Virus genome (UHGV): UHGV-0139780
Reading direction: 5' to 3' (one strand)
Length of the DNA stretch: 49,330 bases
Source of the DNA: a virus
Shown here: piece after piece, positions 3,561-47,437 of the stretch
Layout of the letters: each line of letters starts with the position of its first letter
Position numbering within the stretch: position 1 is the first letter of the stretch
Position numbers and translations under genes: made by a program
Notes under the pieces: model-generated
Databases searched by the model: none
What the model was told of the DNA's origin: nothing
Seen by the model: the letters and a program-made list of their open reading frames with translations, nothing else

Positions 3561-3919
3561 TGTCCATGAAAATGGGTGACCTAGCAAAGCGCAAAGAGCC
3601 TGATGCACCGGCTAAGAACACAACTCCTTTGCGCCAACCAGTCAGACCACAGGGACGCCCGACTCGTGGCAAAGAGAAAATTAAAAGCCGCACAATGTCA
3701 CTGGAAGACGAATACTTCGAACTGCTGGAGATGATGAAGTTCATCCCTCGTTTCGAGAAGTTCACCCGTTCTGACGTGATTCGAGCAGCTATTTTCCATC
3801 TGGCAGAGAAGTCACCGCAGGAAATCGAGGACATCGTGAAACTTAACGAGGCGATCACAGCTGCCGACGTTACTATGCGTACCGATGAAATCAAGCGAGA
3901 ACTCATGAAAAAAGGCTGA
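3560..3919 (+). CDS. small centromere-binding partner protein (ParG/RHH-like)
   Basis: 119 aa, basic N-terminal tail, start overlaps the parA stop; 3' end resembles an RHH fold. Confidence 0.5.
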   Translation: MSMKMGDLAKRKEPDAPAKNTTPLRQPVRPQGRPTRGKEKIKSRTMSLEDEYFELLEMMKFIPRFEKFTRSDVIRAAIFHLAEKSPQEIEDIVKLNEAITAADVTMRTDEIKRELMKKG

Positions 3920-4114: not shown

Positions 4115-4864
4115 GTGAGCCACATGAGCCAAATCTTTTTCGACACAATCGACAACGACCAGTACGACTTCATGACAGAGTGGAATACCGCTGTTATGGA
4201 CAAGTGGGTTGCTGAAAACATTGGTTTGTCGCGCTGCAAAGACGAGGCTGAACTCTTCTATACGAAGTGGTTTGATTACCGCGACATGCATCCTCTTATG
4301 GCTACCTGTCTGTTTACGGAGGCATACAAACGTCAGTACTCAAATATCATGCTGACGCACGGTCGCGAACACTTTGAAACAGCTCCGTTTACCACCGGGT
4401 TAAAACGCCTGCCTTATCAGGAGTTGTCGACTGCCAATAAAACGTCGCTATGGAAAGCACGCCAGTTTGCTGACCGCTATTGCTGCTCATACGACTACTT
4501 TATCTCCACCGTGCTTTCCGCAGCTGCACGACGTCTGTGGGACAAGCTGCCTCGCCCACAACATTTGTGGCAGCCAGAACTGATTGAGATATTTGAAGAG
4601 AAATTAGCCAGGCGCGCAACAACCCGTCTGGATGACTCTCTGGTTAGCTTTAAGCATATGGGAGACATGCAGTTCAACCCGATCCAGGAAAGCTATTTTG
4701 AGTGGATTCTGGAGCGTTTACGCACCATCCCCCGCAGCAAGCGCATACGCGCAATTTTCTCCGCTATCTGGCTAATGGAAATCGTTCCAGAGCGCCTTAT
4801 TTCCGCCCACTTTCCAGAAGAACTGGAAGAAGCACGGCGGTTTATTGATCCCCTATCTAATTAA
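4115..4864 (+). CDS. hypothetical protein
   Basis: 249-aa ORF immediately upstream of the helicase gene; no motif recognised. Confidence 0.4.
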   Translation: MSHMSQIFFDTIDNDQYDFMTEWNTAVMDKWVAENIGLSRCKDEAELFYTKWFDYRDMHPLMATCLFTEAYKRQYSNIMLTHGREHFETAPFTTGLKRLPYQELSTANKTSLWKARQFADRYCCSYDYFISTVLSAAARRLWDKLPRPQHLWQPELIEIFEEKLARRATTRLDDSLVSFKHMGDMQFNPIQESYFEWILERLRTIPRSKRIRAIFSAIWLMEIVPERLISAHFPEELEEARRFIDPLSN

Positions 4865-10440: not shown

Positions 10441-10515
10441 GATGGTGTAGCTCAGCGGCAGAGCAGTTGGCTGTTAACCAACTGGTCGGTGGTTCGAATC
10501 CACCCACCATCGCCA
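10441..10515 (+). tRNA. tRNA-Asn (anticodon GTT)
   Basis: Cloverleaf by eye: acceptor gatggtg/caccatc, anticodon loop ctGTTaa, T-loop ggttcgaatcc, encoded CCA. Confidence 0.8.
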
Positions 10516-10520
10516 ATTTA

Positions 10521-10608
10521 GGGGAGTTAGTCCGTAGAGGTAGCGGGGTAGACTGTAAATCTACTGTCATTGCGACTCGGATGGTTCGACTCCATCACTC
10601 CCCACCAA
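10521..10608 (+). tRNA. tRNA-Tyr (anticodon GTA), long variable arm
   Basis: Acceptor ggggagt/actcccc, anticodon stem-loop tagac-tGTAaat-ctact, long variable arm, T-loop ggttcgactcc, CCA. Confidence 0.8.
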
Positions 10609-10611
10609 ATT

Positions 10612-10687
10612 GCCGGTTTAGCTCAGTTGGTAGAGCAGTCGCTTTGTAAGCGAATGGCCAGCGGTTCAAGTCCGTTAACCGGCACCA
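10612..10687 (+). tRNA. tRNA-Thr (anticodon TGT)
   Basis: Acceptor gccggtt/aaccggc, D-arm gctcagttggtagagc, anticodon loop ttTGTaa, T-loop ttcaagt, CCA. Confidence 0.65.
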
Positions 10688-10695
10688 CAACAATT

Positions 10696-10782
10696 GGAGA
10701 GTAGGGAGCATGGTGCTCAAACGGTCTTGAAAACCGTCCCATTGCGCAAGCGATGATGGTTCGATTCCATTACTCTCCGCCA
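10696..10782 (+). tRNA. tRNA-Ser (anticodon TGA), long variable arm
   Basis: Acceptor ggagagt/actctcc, anticodon stem-loop acggt-ctTGAaa-accgt, long variable arm, T-loop ggttcgattcc, CCA. Confidence 0.75.
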
Positions 10783-15704: not shown

Positions 15705-17987
15705 ATGACGACTACTGCACTGCAAAATGAAAAAAATCCTTCTGATTACCTTGTTTGCAAGTGGTGCGGCAAATCATTTCACTATTTTAAGTCCCATGTA
15801 GCCAATGGTAATTGTGAGGGCATTCCTGAGTCAGTAAAAGATTCCGACCCTGACACCGTACTGAAAATGTACACAACGCAGTTTCCAGATGAGCCAACGC
15901 TATCGAAAAAGGCACTTGATGCAATTCAAGCTAAACGTGCCGAGCAAAAAAGCGAACTGGCCAAATCTTCTGGCGTGACCAGTAGCCCAGGCTACACAGG
16001 CACAGTTGAGTACAAGACAGATCTGGTCGCAGCTCACGAACTGCTAAACGTAACGGTGGAAGAACTCGGAACAAAACGTGGGACGCCGCTCATGGTTAGC
16101 GTCAACGTCAATACGCCGTTTCCAGAGTTCGTTCCCGAAGTGAAGAAGGGCTACGTATATGGCGACTTCGAACTGATCAAAGATATTTTCATGATGCTTG
16201 AACTTGGCATACCTGGCTATTTGTGGGGTCATGCAGGAACAGGCAAGGCCCAGCCAGTAGATACGCTAATCCCAACACCAAGAGGGATGGTGCGCTTTGG
16301 TGATTTGAAAGTTGGTGATGAGGTATTCGGATCTAACGGAAAGTCCACAAAGATAACAGGCATCTTCCCACAAGGGATTAAGCCAATTTATCGCATCACC
16401 TTTAGAGATGGTTCTAGCACACGAGCTTGCGGCGAACATCTTTGGCATATCCTACCTACACATGAATACAAGACCAAAAACGGCAAGAGCTACAAGCAAC
16501 ATGCAAAAATCAGAACGACCAAAGAAATGATTGACTTGGGAATCAGAAATTCTGGTGGTCAGTGCAAGTTCAAAGTTCCTTTAACTAAAGCTGTCGAGTG
16601 GCCCTCGCAGGAACATCTCATCCATCCCTATTTATTAGGTGCGTTAATTGGAGACGGTTACTTATTAGGGAACACGCCAGCAATGAGCGTGGGTACGGAA
16701 GACATTGATATCAAGAGAAGAATCGATTCTCTTCTTCCTGATGGTATGCGCACCAGCAAGCTCAGAAACACGAGTGAAAACGGGCGGCAATTTAATATCA
16801 TCGACTGCAAAAAGTTCCGTCAAAACAGAATGATGGATGAGATTAAACGGCTGGGTTTGAATGTGCAATCAGGGGAAAAATTTATCCCAGATGAATATCT
16901 CTTCGACTCCACTGAAAATCGCCTCGCTTTACTCCGAGGACTGATGGATACAGACGGAAGCGTGAGACAAAACCGTACAAACTTCTCCACCACGTCTGAA
17001 AAGCTGGCTGCATGTGTGAAGTTTCTTGTTCAGTCTTTAGGCGGAACTGCGATAGTAAAAGATGGAGCCGCAGAACGTCATAAGAGCGGTTACTATGCTG
17101 ATATTAACGTGAAAATGTTCATTAACCCATTTTCCGCTGATCGGAAATCCAAAAACTGGTCTCCATCTACCAAGAATCCGCCAAGCAGATTTATCACCTC
17201 TATCGAGGAAGATGGCGAGGCTGAGTGCATATGTATAAAAGTAAGCGCAGATGATGAACTGTACATCACCGAAGAGTTTATCGTTACGCACAATACAACT
17301 CTGCCTACACAGCTATGTGCTTTGCTCAATCGCCCGTTGATCCGTGCCCAACATACAGCATCAATGGAAGAGGCACATGTTACGGGGCAAATTCTGGCGC
17401 GTGATGGCTCTACGTATTTCGAACCTGGCTTGCTTGCGCTCGCAATGAAGCATGGCTGGGTTTACCTCGCGGATGAATACGACTTTGCGTTTCCACAAAT
17501 TCTTGGCGTGTATCAGCCAGTGCTGGAAGGTGAAGCGTTGGTCATCAAAGAGGCGACTCCAGAATGGCGTCGCATTACTCCGCATGAACGGTTTGCTTTC
17601 ATTGGCACTGGCAACACGAACGGATCTGGTGATGAAACCGGCTTGTACCAGGGTACAAACATCCAGAACGCCGCGAACTTTTCGCGTTTTGGCATCGTTT
17701 CGAATGTGAAATACATGAGCAAAGAGGCAGAGATCAACATGTTGATAAATGCCGGCATTGTGGATGAATACGCTGAAAAGATGGTTAAGTTTGCCGGTAT
17801 CGTTCGCGATGGATACGAAGAACACAATATTAGCCAACCAATTGGGCCTCGTGAGCTTTTGTTGTCGGCCAAGATTGGAATGATGCGAGGCGATTTTGTG
17901 ACAGGTATTGAGCGTTCTTTCATTAACAAACTCCCTTCAGCTTCTGCGCAAGCGGCACGTGAAGTTGTTCAAAAAATATTTGGTTAA
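15705..17987 (+). CDS. AAA+ ATPase (CobS/MoxR-like) interrupted by an intein
   Basis: Walker A GHAGTGK is split from the TTLPTQL continuation by 349 aa carrying two LAGLIDADG-like motifs and a terminal HN. Confidence 0.6.
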   Translation: MTTTALQNEKNPSDYLVCKWCGKSFHYFKSHVANGNCEGIPESVKDSDPDTVLKMYTTQFPDEPTLSKKALDAIQAKRAEQKSELAKSSGVTSSPGYTGTVEYKTDLVAAHELLNVTVEELGTKRGTPLMVSVNVNTPFPEFVPEVKKGYVYGDFELIKDIFMMLELGIPGYLWGHAGTGKAQPVDTLIPTPRGMVRFGDLKVGDEVFGSNGKSTKITGIFPQGIKPIYRITFRDGSSTRACGEHLWHILPTHEYKTKNGKSYKQHAKIRTTKEMIDLGIRNSGGQCKFKVPLTKAVEWPSQEHLIHPYLLGALIGDGYLLGNTPAMSVGTEDIDIKRRIDSLLPDGMRTSKLRNTSENGRQFNIIDCKKFRQNRMMDEIKRLGLNVQSGEKFIPDEYLFDSTENRLALLRGLMDTDGSVRQNRTNFSTTSEKLAACVKFLVQSLGGTAIVKDGAAERHKSGYYADINVKMFINPFSADRKSKNWSPSTKNPPSRFITSIEEDGEAECICIKVSADDELYITEEFIVTHNTTLPTQLCALLNRPLIRAQHTASMEEAHVTGQILARDGSTYFEPGLLALAMKHGWVYLADEYDFAFPQILGVYQPVLEGEALVIKEATPEWRRITPHERFAFIGTGNTNGSGDETGLYQGTNIQNAANFSRFGIVSNVKYMSKEAEINMLINAGIVDEYAEKMVKFAGIVRDGYEEHNISQPIGPRELLLSAKIGMMRGDFVTGIERSFINKLPSASAQAAREVVQKIFG
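16248..17294 (+). mobile_element. intein with LAGLIDADG homing-endonuclease domain inside the AAA+ ATPase P-loop
   Basis: LLGALIGDGYL and LLRGLMDTDGSV blocks; ends ...VTHN with Thr as +1 residue; N-terminal residue Ala (non-canonical); excision restores GHAGTGKTTL. Confidence 0.6.
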
Positions 17988-24664: not shown

Positions 24665-26842
24665 ATGGCAAAAGGAAAATCCGCACTGGCACTTGCTCTG
24701 AAAAAGAAAATCGGTAGCAACGACGAAATTCAGAAAGTAACTCATTGGATTGACACAGGCTTTCCTCCGTTAAACAAAGCTATTTCCGGTCGTTACGATG
24801 GCGGTTTCCCATGTGGTCGTATCGTAGAAGTATTCGGGCCGCCAAGCGCGGGGAAAACCTTTTTGGCAACAGCAGCAATGATATCCGCTCAGAAACAAGA
24901 TGGTCTGGCGGTATTCCTCGATCATGAGAACAGTTTTGATGTTGGCCTGGCTGTCGCCAATGGCCTGAACGCAGATGAGGATGACGGTCAGTGGGTATAC
25001 AAGCAGCCTGATACCTTCGAAGACTCTGTAGAGTTGATCGGCACAATACTTAAATTGGTACGTGATGAAGAGCTTATCCCTGAATCAGCACCTATCTGTA
25101 TCGTGGCTGACTCACTTGCGTCTATGGTTCCGAACTCCAAAGCCGAGAAGTTCGAAAAGATGGCTGAAGGCACTGCCAAAGACAAAGATCAGCTAAACAT
25201 GAACGACAATACGGCGCTGGCGCGTGCGACGAGTGCGAACTTTCCTACTCTGGCTTTGTGGGCGCGTAAATACAATGCTTGTTTAATTTTCCTCAATCAG
25301 ATGAGGACAAATCTGGGAATTATGTTTGGCGATAGATGTTTGAGAGGGGATGCAATAATACCTTTCGTTGATGGCACAAGCGCAACTATCCGAGAAATTG
25401 TAGAGAACAAAATAGAAAAAGATGTGTGGTCGTACAACGAAGAGTCAGGCGTTATCGAGCCAAAGAAAATCAACGAATGGCATGATAACGGCCGCAAGCC
25501 AGATGATGAGGAATGGATACACATCAGCACGCTTGGACACAATACCAAAAACGGGGTTATGGCTGCGACATTTACAGAGGATCACCGCATCCTGACTCGT
25601 CGTGGTTGGACTACGGCCAAAGACATAATTGAAGGCGATGAATTGCTTACCAAGCGCACAACTGTTTTAACTAATGAAACCAGGTCTCAAGTTGTCGGCT
25701 TCTTAGTGGGAGACTGCGCTTTTAGAAAGATGAGAGGCGAAAGAACCACAGCAGGCATTGCTTTTCAGGATAATGCGAACCCGTCTTACTCAAAGTGGAA
25801 AGCGGATAAGCTATCGAATCTATTTGGCGAATTTACAGAGACAAAAGTTCTTTTAGGTCGAATGTCAGGAAAGTACGGAATTAGACACGACTCTCCTGTT
25901 AACAACGATTTTAAAGACCTGGAGGATTATGTCAGAAATCCGCTAAAAGTGTTTACGGAGTTTGCCTCCTGGCAAAACTTCGCTCTACTGGTAATGGATG
26001 ACGGTCATCTTGATAGCAGAGGTCGATACGACATTTCATTTAAACGTAAGGCTAAAAAACACTGTGGCAGAGGGTATCTCCAAAACCTGGCCGATATCCT
26101 GTACGACAAATTCAGCATCAGATCAAAAGTTAACGCGCGTAAGGGAGGCCTCCTCTTTGACCAGGAATCCAGCGCCATAATTGCTGAGAATATTGCATCG
26201 TTTGTCTTTGATTCTATGCAGTACAAGCTCCCCTCGGAGTATCGTGGCAAGTTCGTCGATAATTATGATATGCAACCGGTAGTCTCATTCTATGAACATT
26301 GGACGGTCGTCAAAGATGTCCGCGAGAGCAAGGTAAAAAAGGGAGCGGGGAGAACATTAACACGACGTTATGACATTGGTGTTGAAGACAACCATAACTA
26401 TATGGTTGGAAATTCGGCAAATGGATTTATCGTTCACAATTGCACGTCACCAGGTGGCGATTCACCGAAGTTTTACGCTTCTGTGCGCATCCGTCTCGGT
26501 GCATCGGTGATGAAGGATGGTAAAGAGAAGATCGGTCAGGACGTAGGCGCAGAGTGCATCAAAAACAAAGTTGCACCACCGTATGGCAAATGCACCTGGA
26601 AATTCTACTTCGATCCTACTCGTGGCCTCGACGTTATCGAATCGCTCGTCGAGTACATGCTGGAAGAAGGATACCTGCCAAAGAACGCCAGCGGGCGCGT
26701 AGAAATTGGTGACAAGAAATACACCAAATCACAGATCGTCGAGATGTATCGGGAGAAGCCACTAGCTGAAATCATTGCGGCTTTACAGGCAATCGACGAC
26801 CGGAGAGCAAAAGATACCCCCACGGAGTCAGTAGAAGGGTAA
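24665..26842 (+). CDS. RecA/UvsX-like recombinase interrupted by an intein
   Basis: Walker A GPPSAGKT; exteins rejoin as LNQMRTNLGIMFGDR-CTSPGGDSPKFYASVRIRLG, matching the RecA block NQIR..[23 protein letters not shown]. Confidence 0.7.
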   Translation: MAKGKSALALALKKKIGSNDEIQKVTHWIDTGFPPLNKAISGRYDGGFPCGRIVEVFGPPSAGKTFLATAAMISAQKQDGLAVFLDHENSFDVGLAVANGLNADEDDGQWVYKQPDTFEDSVELIGTILKLVRDEELIPESAPICIVADSLASMVPNSKAEKFEKMAEGTAKDKDQLNMNDNTALARATSANFPTLALWARKYNACLIFLNQMRTNLGIMFGDRCLRGDAIIPFVDGTSATIREIVENKIEKDVWSYNEESGVIEPKKINEWHDNGRKPDDEEWIHISTLGHNTKNGVMAATFTEDHRILTRRGWTTAKDIIEGDELLTKRTTVLTNETRSQVVGFLVGDCAFRKMRGERTTAGIAFQDNANPSYSKWKADKLSNLFGEFTETKVLLGRMSGKYGIRHDSPVNNDFKDLEDYVRNPLKVFTEFASWQNFALLVMDDGHLDSRGRYDISFKRKAKKHCGRGYLQNLADILYDKFSIRSKVNARKGGLLFDQESSAIIAENIASFVFDSMQYKLPSEYRGKFVDNYDMQPVVSFYEHWTVVKDVRESKVKKGAGRTLTRRYDIGVEDNHNYMVGNSANGFIVHNCTSPGGDSPKFYASVRIRLGASVMKDGKEKIGQDVGAECIKNKVAPPYGKCTWKFYFDPTRGLDVIESLVEYMLEEGYLPKNASGRVEIGDKKYTKSQIVEMYREKPLAEIIAALQAIDDRRAKDTPTESVEG
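25337..26440 (+). mobile_element. intein with LAGLIDADG homing-endonuclease domain in the recombinase
   Basis: 368 aa beginning CLRGDAII and ending FIVHN with Cys +1; internal VVGFLVGDCAF and FALLVMDDGHL blocks. Confidence 0.7.
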
Positions 26843-29031: not shown

Positions 29032-29367
29032 ATGAAGGCCATCCCATTCGCTCTGTTGTTCCTTTCTTCGATCGTTGTGGCCGACGCCACTGTTTATCAG
29101 TGTGAAATGTCTGTAGCCGAAGTTAAGAATGGCGCTCTTACCGACGTCATAAAAGCACCATATGGCGCGATGGTCGTAGACAGCGGCGACCAGTTCTATG
29201 TTGTGCGTGACGATCGAGTATTGTCATCCCCATATCTCACAAACCGTAATGGCAAATTAACCGGCGTCGGAGAAGACCACTTCGTATACAACAAATACAA
29301 GGGCTTCTATGGCGTTCACGCTTCTCAGCAAAGCTACCTTTTCGATGACTGCAAGGAGGTTGGATAA
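29032..29367 (+). CDS. hypothetical secreted protein (signal peptide)
   Basis: N-terminal signal-like segment MKAIPFALLFLSSIVVADA; 111 aa. Confidence 0.4.
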   Translation: MKAIPFALLFLSSIVVADATVYQCEMSVAEVKNGALTDVIKAPYGAMVVDSGDQFYVVRDDRVLSSPYLTNRNGKLTGVGEDHFVYNKYKGFYGVHASQQSYLFDDCKEVG

Positions 29368-29579
29368 TGGCATTAACACTGGCAGGTCTGGAAATCGAGA
29401 AAACAAGCGGCTACTGGCGTGCTAAGGGCTTCAAGCAGCCTGGCATTCTTGAGCGTCTGGAACGTGAAGATGGGTATATCGTCCACCAGCGGCGTGAATG
29501 GCGTATGTACGATCCAGAAACAGGAAAACTGACTACAAAAGCCGGGACACTTTGGGGTCTGTTAAAGAAAATACACTAA
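29367..29579 (+). CDS. hypothetical small protein
   Basis: 70-aa ORF overlapping the previous stop (ATGA); hairpin follows at 29590-29610. Confidence 0.35.
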   Translation: MALTLAGLEIEKTSGYWRAKGFKQPGILERLEREDGYIVHQRREWRMYDPETGKLTTKAGTLWGLLKKIH

Positions 29580-29627
29580 ATGCAAACTGACTGCGGCTCG
29601 TTCCGCAGTCATATTTCATTGTCGTCA

Positions 29628-30159
29628 CCGCTGACAGCATACACAATCAATTACCGCTGATAGCATATCGAGAGTTTATCTCACCGCTCACAGCATACTT
29701 TACTCGATTTTTTACCGCTGACAGCATACTTAAGACATTGCATGAATAATGTGTACCGGTATGGGTATAACCAGAACAAAATTACCGCTGGCAGCATACG
29801 AAGGTCTGACATATACCATTAATTACCGCTGATAGCATATCCAAACAAAAATTCCTCAATAAAACACCGCTGACAGCATACGTTCTATCAGGGAGCAGCA
29901 GGCAATAAATGCCTTTCACTACAAGCAATCAGCGCAATGGCAATAGAATGTTAGTGAGCGCAAACCTATATGGAATGCACTCTTCGAGGTTAGTAACCAC
30001 TGGGTAGGTATGACAGAGCATTGAGTGGTGATAGATGTTTTACCGCTCACAGCATACGTTTATCTCACTATACCGCTAGTAGCATATCTCTAACCGTTCA
30101 CAGCATACTTTTCAGAAAAATAGCCGCTGATAGCATACATTTCACCGCTGACAGCATAT
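29628..30159 (+). repeat. iteron array (12 direct repeats, consensus CCGCTGACAGCATAC) downstream of repA; incA-like
   Basis: Copies start at 29628, 29654, 29684, 29715, 29785, 29826, 29867, 30043, 30073, 30094, 30124, 30145; same orientation; irregular spacing. Confidence 0.75.
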
Positions 30160-31253
30160 CAAAGCAGTTTGAGACTATTGGAAAGGATCTCAATCATCTT
30201 GATATTTTCAGGCGTCAAATTCTGCGAAAGTTCGGTTATCTTGTTGATAATGTTCTGTTTGGCATCAATTTCCCCAGCTTTCTCATCTGGTTTTTTGGGT
30301 TCGATGTCTTCAGGTTTTGGCGGTGCGACTTTGAGTTTTGGATTGCGGCTGTGAATCTGGATATAGATCGACCGCCCTCGCTTAATCTCGCTGTATTCGA
30401 GATAGCCCAAATCTTGAAGAACTTTTAAGCCGTTACGTATAGTCTGATTCTGCGAGCTGACATTCCTGCTACTCAAATTGAGTCGCGCACGCAATCGAGC
30501 AAGCGATACCGGCGCAGGCTTGGTTGGAAGACTTTCGATGAAGGTGTACAGAGCCTGTGCTGTTTCTTTGCGTGGTAGCTTATTGATAACCTTTAACTGC
30601 AAAAGAACCTTATGGTCAAAGCGATATAGTTCGGCCAGCTTCGGTTCTGCATAGAATACCACCGTATCTTTCTGCTCGTTGTAGTCCACGCTATTGATGA
30701 GGTGCACCATCAGAAGCGAGATCTTGTTAGAACCGTCGACATTCTTTTCTTCATACGTTCTCTGGAAAGACAGAGTGGTACGCATAATCTTCAAAAGACT
30801 GTTTGTAAGCCGGTCGCGGAGTGTTTTGCGGATCTGTGACGATGGATAGCCACAAAACTTCGCAAATTTCGTGATGCTTAACTCGACACGACCGTTAGGT
30901 TCGCCGTATTCTGCCAGCGAACGCACGACGCCCACCCACGTTTTGAAATCATGATCCATGTCGAGACGAGGACCGGTTATCTTGATATCGGAATAGCCTT
31001 CAGAACGGGCTACTTCGAGCTGAACAAGCTCCTTTGAAGCATCGATCTCATTTGGCTTGTTACGCTTGCTGTATTTTGTCCCCTTGAGCGTGGGCACGAA
31101 CAACCCCAGCCGCATCAACGCAATTGGTTGGACTGTATTGTTGCTATTAGGGACAAGTTCCCCTGTGTACAATTCAAGGGAACCTTCTTCAAAGTTGTCG
31201 AGATTATCTTCTACTTCTTTGTTATTTTTACCTTTTTTATTTTTTGTGGACAT
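30159..31253 (-). CDS. repA: iteron-binding replication initiator (RepA-like)
   Basis: Large basic ORF flanked on both sides by iterons; start set to the internal ATG at 31253 (MSTKNKK...) because the track extension overlaps the upstream iterons. Confidence 0.6.
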   Translation of the reverse strand: MSTKNKKGKNNKEVEDNLDNFEEGSLELYTGELVPNSNNTVQPIALMRLGLFVPTLKGTKYSKRNKPNEIDASKELVQLEVARSEGYSDIKITGPRLDMDHDFKTWVGVVRSLAEYGEPNGRVELSITKFAKFCGYPSSQIRKTLRDRLTNSLLKIMRTTLSFQRTYEEKNVDGSNKISLLMVHLINSVDYNEQKDTVVFYAEPKLAELYRFDHKVLLQLKVINKLPRKETAQALYTFIESLPTKPAPVSLARLRARLNLSSRNVSSQNQTIRNGLKVLQDLGYLEYSEIKRGRSIYIQIHSRNPKLKVAPPKPEDIEPKKPDEKAGEIDAKQNIINKITELSQNLTPENIKMIEILSNSLKLL

Positions 31254-31274
31254 GTGGACACCTTTGTCATTCAA

Positions 31275-31375
31275 CCGCTGACAGCATACTTGATTTGCCG
31301 CTGGCAGCATACCAAAAACAGTTGGCAGCATACGGCGAACCGTTGACAGACTATCAATTACCGCTGGCAGCATAC
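31275..31375 (+). repeat. iteron cluster upstream of repA (3 full and 2 partial copies); incC/origin-like
   Basis: ccgctgacagcatac at 31275, ccgctggcagcatac at 31298 and 31361; partial copies at 31322 and 31339. Confidence 0.7.
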
Positions 31376-31414
31376 ATGAACATGACTTCAGACCAGTCGT
31401 GGCGCGGCTTACAG

Positions 31415-31493
31415 CGATCGGGGATCTTATTTGATCTATACAAGGATCTATCTATGGATCTCTTTATTAGGATCTATCCTGTGGATATGTGAA
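31415..31493. promoter_or_regulatory. candidate replication origin core: six GATC sites in an AT-rich stretch plus a DnaA-box-like 9-mer
   Basis: GATC at 31415, 31425, 31435, 31447, 31459, 31473; tgtggatat at 31481-31489 matches the complement of the DnaA box TTATCCACA at 8 of 9. Confidence 0.45.
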
Positions 31494-31574
31494 TAATTAA
31501 AACAGGCATTTACTACCTTCGGCGCACCTGGTGGGTTATCGTTGCCTCGGCTAACAATCACAGAAAAATGACAT

Positions 31575-32219
31575 ATGGATCTAAAACGCACGCGCTGGGT
31601 TCGTCGTCTTGAAGACGGCTCCTACACTATCGAATCAAATTCCAACCTGAATAAGCAGAAGCTGCTTTGTGACATCTGCGGTATAGCGGCGAAGTGCCCG
31701 ATCTACGAAACCAGAATTAAACTTGATAAGGCTGGTGTGAACTTTCATTTAAACAGTTGCATCAGGTACGTTCCATTGCTCGCATTTCGTAAACCGATCA
31801 TCGGATTGGATGCCCCCTACTTCAACACACTTCGTTCAGGTGTGACGTGGCGAGATCGTTTATCACCAGACAAGCTGATTTGCCTTGTATCCGCAGACAC
31901 AGGGAAAATCATCCGTTTTGGGAAAGTAGACAAGGTTTACTCAGGTCCAGTAGACGAAATGTTGCGAAAACACAGCCGGTTTAATCATCTCTGTATGGGT
32001 GGAGAGAAAATCGAGAAGGTAGAAGAAGTGATCCGTAAATCCTACGGACACTTCCTAACCAAAGATAGCCTGCTCACCGCAATCTACATCAGACATGTAA
32101 AACGTGAGTTCGACCTCGAATACCACAGTGAAGAAGAGCTTAACCTTGTTGACCCACGTCCAAAAGCTGGCGTCATAAGCATAAACGCAGCGCGTAAAAA
32201 GCCCACTGACGCGCTGTAA
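31575..32219 (+). CDS. hypothetical protein
   Basis: 214-aa ORF, Cys-containing; no motif recognised. Confidence 0.4.
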   Translation: MDLKRTRWVRRLEDGSYTIESNSNLNKQKLLCDICGIAAKCPIYETRIKLDKAGVNFHLNSCIRYVPLLAFRKPIIGLDAPYFNTLRSGVTWRDRLSPDKLICLVSADTGKIIRFGKVDKVYSGPVDEMLRKHSRFNHLCMGGEKIEKVEEVIRKSYGHFLTKDSLLTAIYIRHVKREFDLEYHSEEELNLVDPRPKAGVISINAARKKPTDAL

Positions 32220-46843: not shown

Positions 46844-47437
46844 ATGATTGCAGCTGAAAAAATCAAACAGCGAAAGCGCGACAACTCTCTTCGTGATCTC
46901 TGGAGAACACCTGATTGGCTGTTTTCTGCCATTCAACGTTATCTTGGAGTGACATTTGATGTTGACGTTGCCTGCAACAAGGACAATGCAAAGCTGCCAA
47001 ATTTCATAGGCGTTGAGCGCGATGCTTTGAAATCTGAATGGGGGCAGCCAGGTACAATTGCCTTCCTCAATCCACCCTACTCCAAAATCTCCCCCTGGAT
47101 TGATGCGGCTATACGTGAGCAGGCTCGCGGAGTTACAACCGTGATGCTAATTCCTCAATCCCTCGATACAAAGTGGTATGAGCGTGCAACAGAGTGTGCG
47201 AATGAGACGATTATTCTGTCTGGTGGCCGCGTAGCGTTTGTCGAGCCTGACGTCAATTTGGGTCAGGTAGAAGTAAACATCAACCCCGGTGGCAGTATGC
47301 TCGTTGTTTTTCGAGGATTCTGTCAGGATGCTGGGCACTCTATAAGCAAGATCCCTCTGGACGTCATGAAAAGTCTGGGAGGGTATGACCCTGCGAATGT
47401 GATCAGGAAAAAAAGACCATCAAAGAAGGCTGCTTAG
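46844..47437 (+). CDS. DNA N6-adenine methyltransferase (phage Dam-like)
   Basis: NPPY catalytic motif and WRTPDWLF N-terminal block; start at ATG 46844 (track begins at a TTG at 46832). Confidence 0.65.
   Translation: MIAAEKIKQRKRDNSLRDLWRTPDWLFSAIQRYLGVTFDVDVACNKDNAKLPNFIGVERDALKSEWGQPGTIAFLNPPYSKISPWIDAAIREQARGVTTVMLIPQSLDTKWYERATECANETIILSGGRVAFVEPDVNLGQVEVNINPGGSMLVVFRGFCQDAGHSISKIPLDVMKSLGGYDPANVIRKKRPSKKAA

Follow-up and report, generated by a model that had tools for sequence, protein, structure and literature searches.

In the viral genome UHGV-0139780, whose whole stretch of 49,330 nt is referred to here as the window, we examined a region at 29.6–31.5 kb in which a replication initiator gene, repA, lies between two arrays of short repeats (iterons), next to a cluster of GATC sites and a pair of DnaA boxes. 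With a probability of roughly 0.9, we read this region as the replicon by which an SSU5-like phage-plasmid is kept as a low-copy plasmid prophage, and as an iteron-controlled theta replicon of the P1/RepFIB family. Four lines of evidence carry this assignment: the arrays and the GATC cluster greatly exceed what chance would give, the encoded RepA is homologous to known initiators of the family, the origin aligns with oriR of phage P1, and the arrangement is conserved across relatives.

Iteron arrays on both sides of repA

We searched the whole 49-kb window for the pattern CCGCTGACAGCATAC, allowing up to three mismatches, and compared the outcome with 100 shuffled sequences. The pattern was found 18 times against 0.88 matches expected from the shuffles, none of which (0/100) reached 18, and 15 of these 18 matches fell within 29628–31375, all on the plus strand. 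Two further degenerate copies with four mismatches each, at 30073 and 31340, lie in register with their neighbours, bringing the total to 17 iterons, 12 downstream of repA and five upstream, all in a single orientation (17/17). Twelve downstream copies and three to five upstream ones had been proposed in an earlier reading of the window made from the sequence alone (the sequence-only reading), and both numbers were recovered here at a level far above the shuffles. An information profile of the iterons shows ~16 conserved bases, (G/A)TATGCTGTCAGCGGT in the sense of repA.

The five upstream (incC-like) copies are spaced by 23/21/21/21 bp, corresponding to two helical turns, and are separated from the repA start codon by a gap of 21 bp (Table 1). 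The downstream, incA-like array is divided into two blocks: a distal block of seven iterons with an irregular spacing of 26–70 bp, and a proximal block of five, whose copy nearest repA, at 30145, overlaps the repA stop codon. These blocks are separated by a spacer free of iterons, the length of which is not conserved, being 161 bp here, ~70 bp in the Klebsiella element pJN2-26 and ~190 bp in Cronobacter. A scan of the whole window against Rfam at the gathering threshold returned tRNAs only, with no match in this spacer or in the rest of the replicon.

An inverted repeat of 19 nt (18 of 19 positions), formed by 30898–30916 in the repA coding sequence and 31323–31341 in the third origin iteron and its spacer, was also considered as an operator or as a site of long-range pairing. 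As a conserved feature it was ruled out, since the Salmonella, Cronobacter, Klebsiella and F-like relatives do not have it and only 14 nt of it remain in PhiR41_1; it is probably a product of chance or of recent origin.

A RepA initiator of the Rep_3 family

The repA product matched the Pfam model Rep3_N (Rep_3, PF01051; WH1 domain) with 36.8 bits against a cut-off of 22.4 (E = 6.3e-9), and no match was returned from NCBIfam or from a PDB sequence search. A BLASTP alignment placed it at 46% identity to P1 RepA over 278 amino acids (aa; E = 7e-86). It is 85% identical to the RepA of the Klebsiella phage-plasmid pJN2-26, 49% identical to that of SSU5, and ~50% identical, over ~280 aa, to RepFIB/RepB-family initiators encoded in thousands of E. 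coli and Klebsiella plasmids.

Two gene models are in use for this protein. The longer open reading frame (ORF), 31373..30159, encodes 404 aa, and its start is the one used in the PGAP-annotated records examined, whereas a form of 364 aa beginning at the ATG at 31253 is annotated in the record of phage PhiR41_1. We consider the ATG at 31253 the likely start because an AAGGTG Shine–Dalgarno sequence lies 5 nt before it, because it is the start used in PhiR41_1, and because the extra 40 codons of the longer form are the origin iterons read in frame; the 404-aa model is therefore probably over-extended through the origin.

GATC cluster, DnaA boxes and repA promoter

Beyond the origin iterons and a short GC-rich spacer lies the GATC cluster, made up of five AGATC(C/A) heptamer-type repeats and one CGATCG within 59 bp. 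Three GATC sites is the most that any other 70 bp of the window contains, and the mean density is 4.3 per kb; under a Poisson model, ~6e-4 clusters of this kind would be expected in the entire window. Across the window as a whole, GATC is neither depleted nor enriched, with 212 sites observed and 189 expected.

The sequence-only reading had described six GATC sites within about 60 bp of AT-rich DNA, accompanied by one DnaA-box-like 9-mer beside the upstream iterons. The cluster itself holds up when its density is set against the window average. Its AT-richness is present to a modest degree only, at 58–60% AT compared to a window mean of 54%. A DnaA box is indeed found at the predicted side, but there are two boxes instead of one, ATATCCACA at 31480–31488 and TTATTCACA at 31488–31496, which abut each other at the outer edge of the origin and each carry eight of the nine consensus bases. 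The GATC-heptamer region is presumed to be both the DNA-unwinding element and the target of Dam and SeqA, and, by homology with P1, whose oriR is reportedly dependent on methylation, the origin is probably responsive to Dam and SeqA. The REPI (RepFIB) replicon of pColV-K30 is also said to respond to Dam methylation. The promoter of repA is presumed, again from the arrangement in P1, to lie within the origin iterons.

Homology with the P1 replicon

For the comparison with P1 (oriR/incC–repA–incA; IncY), we used a GenBank record with an experimentally derived annotation of the plasmid replicon, in which incA (nine iterons), repA, incC (five iterons), the promoter PrepA inside incC, five Dam sites and a DnaA-binding site are marked. 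Both replicons show the same order of elements, namely DnaA boxes, GATC heptamers, GC-rich spacer, five in-phase iterons, repA and a second iteron array. At the nucleotide level, P1 oriR aligns column by column with the origin of the window, through the DnaA boxes, the AGATCC heptamers, the spacer (GCCGCGCCACG-CTGG) and the five iterons, with the tandem P1 boxes TTATCCACATTATCCAC aligning with the pair found here.

The distances between these elements agree as well. The incC iterons of P1 are spaced by 22/21/21/21 bp compared to 23/21/21/21 bp here, and the last iteron is followed by the first GATC after 40 nt in P1 and 41 nt here. Within the GATC repeats, the two replicons have identical first spacings of 7 and 10, followed by 11/12, and in each of them the start-to-start offset between the last GATC and the DnaA boxes is 6 nt (5 intervening bases). 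In the alignment, the six GATC sites of the window lie opposite the five positions annotated as Dam sites in P1, where the sequence CAGGTCC takes the place of GAGATCC here. In P1, as in the window, the repA stop codon is overlapped by a control iteron (incA copy 9), and the first half of the iteron is common to the two (GTATGCTG here, GTGTGCTG in P1). RepA homology, the nucleotide-level alignment of oriR and the matching order and spacings thus support the incC–repA–incA layout of P1 type put forward in the sequence-only reading, and the relation to P1, as judged from these alignments, is homology of the whole module and not layout resemblance alone.

The two replicons also differ in several respects. 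The second half of the iteron differs from that of P1 and is ~2 bases longer, implying a different specificity and a different incompatibility group. The control array comprises 12 iterons, all direct and arranged in two blocks, compared to nine in P1, of which three are direct and six inverted. RepA is 78 aa longer than its P1 counterpart, with ~30 extra residues at the N-terminus, which are Lys-rich, and ~55 extra residues at the C-terminus.

Table 1 Features of the replicon region and the methyltransferase gene, in window coordinates.
Feature	Position	Strand	Details
Distal block of the downstream (incA-like) array	29628..29881	-	7 iterons: 29628, 29654, 29684, 29715, 29785, 29826, 29867
Iteron-free spacer between control-array blocks	29882..30042		161 bp
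Proximal block of the control array	30043..30159	-	5 iterons: 30043, 30073 (degenerate), 30094, 30124, 30145
repA, replication initiator	31253..30159	-	364 aa; Rep_3 / winged-helix family
Origin (incC-like) iterons	31275..31375	-	5 copies: 31275, 31298, 31319, 31340 (degenerate), 31361
GC-rich spacer, iterons to GATC repeats	31376..31415		GCCGCGCCACGACTGG in repA sense; conserved with P1 by alignment
GATC cluster	31416..31474		six sites: 31416, 31423, 31433, 31445, 31457, 31471
Two abutting DnaA boxes, outer origin edge	31480..31496	-	two 9-mers
Phage Dam-family N6-adenine methyltransferase	46844..47437	+	NPPY motif; Pfam and TIGR profiles

Proposed mode of replication and points that weigh against it

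A mode of replication can be proposed by homology with P1, in whose literature the individual steps are reportedly described. RepA monomers would bind the five in-phase origin iterons and host DnaA the two boxes at the outer edge of the origin, and both proteins together would open the GATC-heptamer region, with loading of the host replisome. RepA would repress its own promoter lying in the origin iterons, and the 12 downstream iterons (29628–30159) would act as a control locus by titrating RepA and by pairing with the origin iterons ('handcuffing'). Once the origin has fired, SeqA would sequester the cluster of GATC sites in its hemimethylated state.

Several observations do not sit easily with this assignment. 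A scan for sigma-70 consensus promoters over 29500–31650 found none on the repA (minus) strand in 31254–31400, where only weak promoter hexamers could be seen by eye. The control array is all-direct, compared to the mixture of orientations in P1, so that the geometry of pairing may differ. Unlike in P1, no DnaA boxes are present between the iterons and repA. Next to the control array lie small hypothetical ORFs encoded on the other strand, and no ParA/ParB gene was found beside the array or anywhere in the annotated equivalent of the window, in contrast to P1, where parAB-parS follows the control array; this locus is specific to P1 and does not define the replicon. Finally, the element has replication genes of its own, among them those for DnaE and a primase. 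Lacking both the repA-proximal DnaA boxes and an adjacent parAB, the region reproduces the P1 maintenance region only in part.

A catalogued replicon type on an SSU5-like backbone

The window as a whole is an E. coli phage-plasmid of SSU5-like type, and the backbone genes around the replicon include dnaE, a primase gene, a RecA-like gene, nrdAB, thyA and genes for DHFR, RNase HI and an integrase, along with a tRNA cluster. The replicon region is 98% identical to that of phages PhiR41_1 and CMS-2020a, and counterparts occur in 203 plasmid records, of which 181 reach at least 95% identity, the replicon being 98–99% identical in about 180 plasmids. The matching plasmids are mostly non-mobilizable and from E. 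coli, many of them with a size of ~107–114 kb, and some come from Shigella, E. albertii and E. fergusonii.

One such plasmid, NC_023916.1 from E. coli H89, carries a replicon that is 98.3% identical. The name of this strain appears in the PlasmidFinder type IncFIB(H89-PhagePlasmid), a type name that is routine in surveillance papers, and, judging from the strain name, NC_023916.1 would be the reference for that type. In MOB-suite, rep_cluster_488 is the sole typed replicon of circular plasmids of 109 kb from E. coli, 105 kb from Salmonella and 64 kb from E. albertii. Compared to IncFIB(H89-PhagePlasmid)/rep_cluster_488, the replicon of the window is the same, with no difference of substance. 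This is in line with previous reports that the majority of phage-plasmids that can be typed are IncFIB and fall within the SSU5 supercommunity (Pfeifer et al. 2021, PMC7969092), and that SSU5 IncFIB rep genes are already within typing tools (2025 preprint). The replicon is thus an already known, catalogued type of a well-studied iteron family.

The best matches to the replicon, at 99.0%, were E. albertii plasmids of 62–64 kb, namely p2014C-4015-1 (NZ_CP034165.1) and six similar records. These plasmids are ~45 kb shorter than the usual phage-plasmids of 107–114 kb, and they may be deleted, defective phage-plasmids.

On IncF plasmids, iterons of RepFIB stand on both sides of repA. The comparison with these plasmids covered RepA, which is homologous at ~50% identity, and the backbone, which differs, being that of a conjugative plasmid there and of a phage-plasmid here.

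Replicon exchange and variation among relatives

We compared the arrays of relatives by repeat finding and DNA alignment. SSU5 itself, like phage Cyrano and pLF82, has the same backbone as the window, with the replicon at the same position, between a cra-like gene and a conserved ORF of 214 aa, and SSU5 also shares the layout of a GATC cluster with iterons. The initiators of these three elements are nevertheless different, with 48–49% identity to the RepA studied here, and in pLF82 and Cyrano the match to the replicon query is limited to its first 80 bases. In SSU5, the iteron core is CCACTGTAGAGAG, the downstream array mixes direct and inverted copies, and the C-terminal tail of RepA is present but different. 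Since different RepA proteins and iterons occur at the same backbone position, the replicon has been exchanged within one phage backbone. A further peculiarity of SSU5 (JQ965645.1; locus ~1780–2000 and 2155–2400) is that the whole origin block, comprising DnaA box, GATC repeats and iterons, is tandemly duplicated upstream of repA, with several GATC sites degenerate in the copy nearer repA.

Closer relatives share the iteron core of the window, including those from Klebsiella, Salmonella Newport (80% DNA identity) and Cronobacter (78%), as well as a 34.7-kb F-like E. coli plasmid (81%). In the Klebsiella phage-plasmid pJN2-26, the same core (GTATGCTGTCAGCGGT) occurs together with five origin iterons, the GATC cluster and two DnaA boxes, differing from the window in its eight downstream iterons and its shorter inter-block spacer. 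The five origin iterons, the GATC cluster and the DnaA boxes are kept in every relative examined, whereas the number of downstream iterons varies from ~4–5 in the F-like plasmid to 13 in Salmonella. This combination of a constant origin and a variable second array is what would be expected of an essential origin with an adjustable control locus. P1 can do without incA, and its copy number is higher once incA is deleted.

Variation of this kind is also seen in PhiR41_1 (locus 4122–4294), which has four distal iterons compared to seven here, and nine downstream iterons in total. PhiR41_1 lacks exactly 87 bp, equal to the distance from the first to the fourth distal iteron of the window (three iterons), which looks like an iteron-to-iteron deletion in PhiR41_1 or an expansion in the lineage of the window, and this difference might change the copy number.

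The F-like plasmid, pCFSAN004177P_01 (CP012496.1; locus 1400–2870), is mobilizable and typed IncFIA/IncFIC, and carries the replicon between resolvase and transposase genes. Its shared DNA corresponds to window positions ~30145–31503 and ends just outside the DnaA boxes, marking natural module boundaries. The presence of the same module on this plasmid indicates that the module moves between phage-plasmids and ordinary plasmids.

Other explanations for the repeats

The repeats on either side of repA might instead be phage attachment or recombination sites (attL/attR), and the pJN2-26 record (MZ779062.1; locus 2378–2397 and 3648–3667) does label two 20-nt repeats flanking repA as attR and attL. 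These 20-mers are, however, two among the 13 or more iterons of that element, and the labels are likely misannotations of iterons. The window has two helically phased arrays with 17 copies in all, on either side of a P1-type initiator that stands beside an origin homologous to that of P1, and the element exists as a circular plasmid, leaving only a vanishingly small chance for attachment sites. A centromere for partition, or some other array bound by a protein with no part in replication, could in principle account for the irregularly spaced short motifs of the distal block; yet the same motif forms the in-phase origin set that aligns with P1 incC, and the ParA/ParB genes sought next to the array and in the annotated equivalent of the window are missing, so that this explanation, too, is extremely improbable.

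With regard to its weight, this is a catalogued replicon of the best-studied iteron family and counts for little as a discovery. Its origin, control iterons, GATC cluster and DnaA boxes are unannotated in the records of the lineage that we examined, and exact coordinates are now given for them. Of practical value, the analysis exposes the probably over-extended RepA gene model and the likely mislabelling of iterons as att sites in one related record. The occurrence of two sets of RepA and iterons on one SSU5-like backbone is relevant to incompatibility between these common elements and to whether they can reside together in E. coli, Klebsiella and Salmonella.

A Dam-family methyltransferase elsewhere on the element

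The sequence-only reading had pointed to a Dam-like methyltransferase at 46844–47437, and profile searches agree. The ORF (METHYLTRANSFERASE; 46832/46844–47437) matched Pfam Dam (PF05869) with 131.8 bits against a cut-off of 28.1 (E = 2.7e-38) and TIGR01712 (phage_N6A_met) with 113.9 bits against a curated cut-off of 97.05, and its translation includes FLNPPYSK, containing the NPPY motif. A PDB sequence search with the protein gave no match. It is 39% identical to the Dam of the Stx phage VT2-Sakai, and 12 phage records carry a copy at 80% identity or more. The Dam of Stx phage VT2 is GATC-specific.

A true phage Dam-family gene on the element, related to the VT2 enzyme, raises the question of whether it is a working part of the replicon, setting the methylation of the six GATC sites and thereby conferring independence of host Dam or overriding SeqA on induction. 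The only GATC cluster of the window is at the origin, and five origin GATCs are annotated as Dam methylation sites in the P1 record, both of which would fit such a role. The gene, however, is located ~15 kb from the origin, in a module of the phage backbone devoted to nucleotide metabolism and replication, and GATC is neither depleted nor enriched in the window overall. Homologues of this RepFIB-type RepA occur on thousands of ordinary plasmids, and the same module is present on the F-like plasmid, the Dam content of these plasmids lying outside the comparison; E. coli hosts, moreover, already encode Dam. We consider a role of the enzyme in the replicon unlikely: nothing indicates a link between the two, host Dam would suffice, and a function in anti-restriction or packaging is, as a conjecture, at least as likely.

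A more specific version of this idea holds that the methyltransferase acts on the six-GATC origin such that plasmid-mode replication is free of the host Dam/SeqA cycle, in combination with a control geometry, all-direct, in two blocks and with 12 iterons, unlike that of P1 incA. We regard it as very unlikely. If the enzyme did act on the origin, this could allow maintenance in hosts without Dam, or could free the origin from sequestration on phage induction. For the P1-family replicon proposed here, methylation by the Dam of the host would be enough.

Neighbouring genes and further features of the window

Just before the distal iterons, an ORF of 70 aa (29367–29579, plus strand) matches the P1 Cra or 'Cre-associated protein' genes in Cyrano, SSU5 and pJN2-26, and is followed by a bidirectional terminator-like hairpin with a 9-bp stem (29588–29611), which marks the left edge of the replicon. 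At the opposite end, the DnaA boxes adjoin an ORF of 214 aa (31575–32219, plus strand), divergent from repA, for which no Pfam or NCBIfam match was found. This ORF was considered as a homologue of P1 UpfA and rejected, as there is no similarity between the two; the gene beside the origin is thus unrelated to P1 upfA. An ORF of 645 nt occupies the same position in the SSU5, Klebsiella, Salmonella and Cronobacter relatives, whichever type of RepA they carry.

Elsewhere in the window, the RecA-like gene (24665–26842, plus strand; 725 aa) contains an intein with a LAGLIDADG homing endonuclease, as seen from matches to the Pfam models RecA, Intein_splicing and LAGLIDADG_2. The corresponding protein is intein-free, with 357 aa, in the near-identical plasmid pEC881_2, and has 779 aa in PhiR41_1, and these differences in size indicate that the presence of the intein varies within the phage-plasmid lineage. 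Similarly, a CobS-like AAA_5 ATPase (15705–17987, plus strand; 760 aa) carries a LAGLIDADG_3/Hom_end insert at ~aa 394–490, which is probably a second intein; the ATPase measures 411 aa in both pEC881_2 and PhiR41_1. Four tRNA genes are located at 10441–10782 on the plus strand (Asn-GTT, Tyr-GTA, Thr-TGT and Ser-TGA), all four of which were detected by ARAGORN and three by Rfam at the gathering score.

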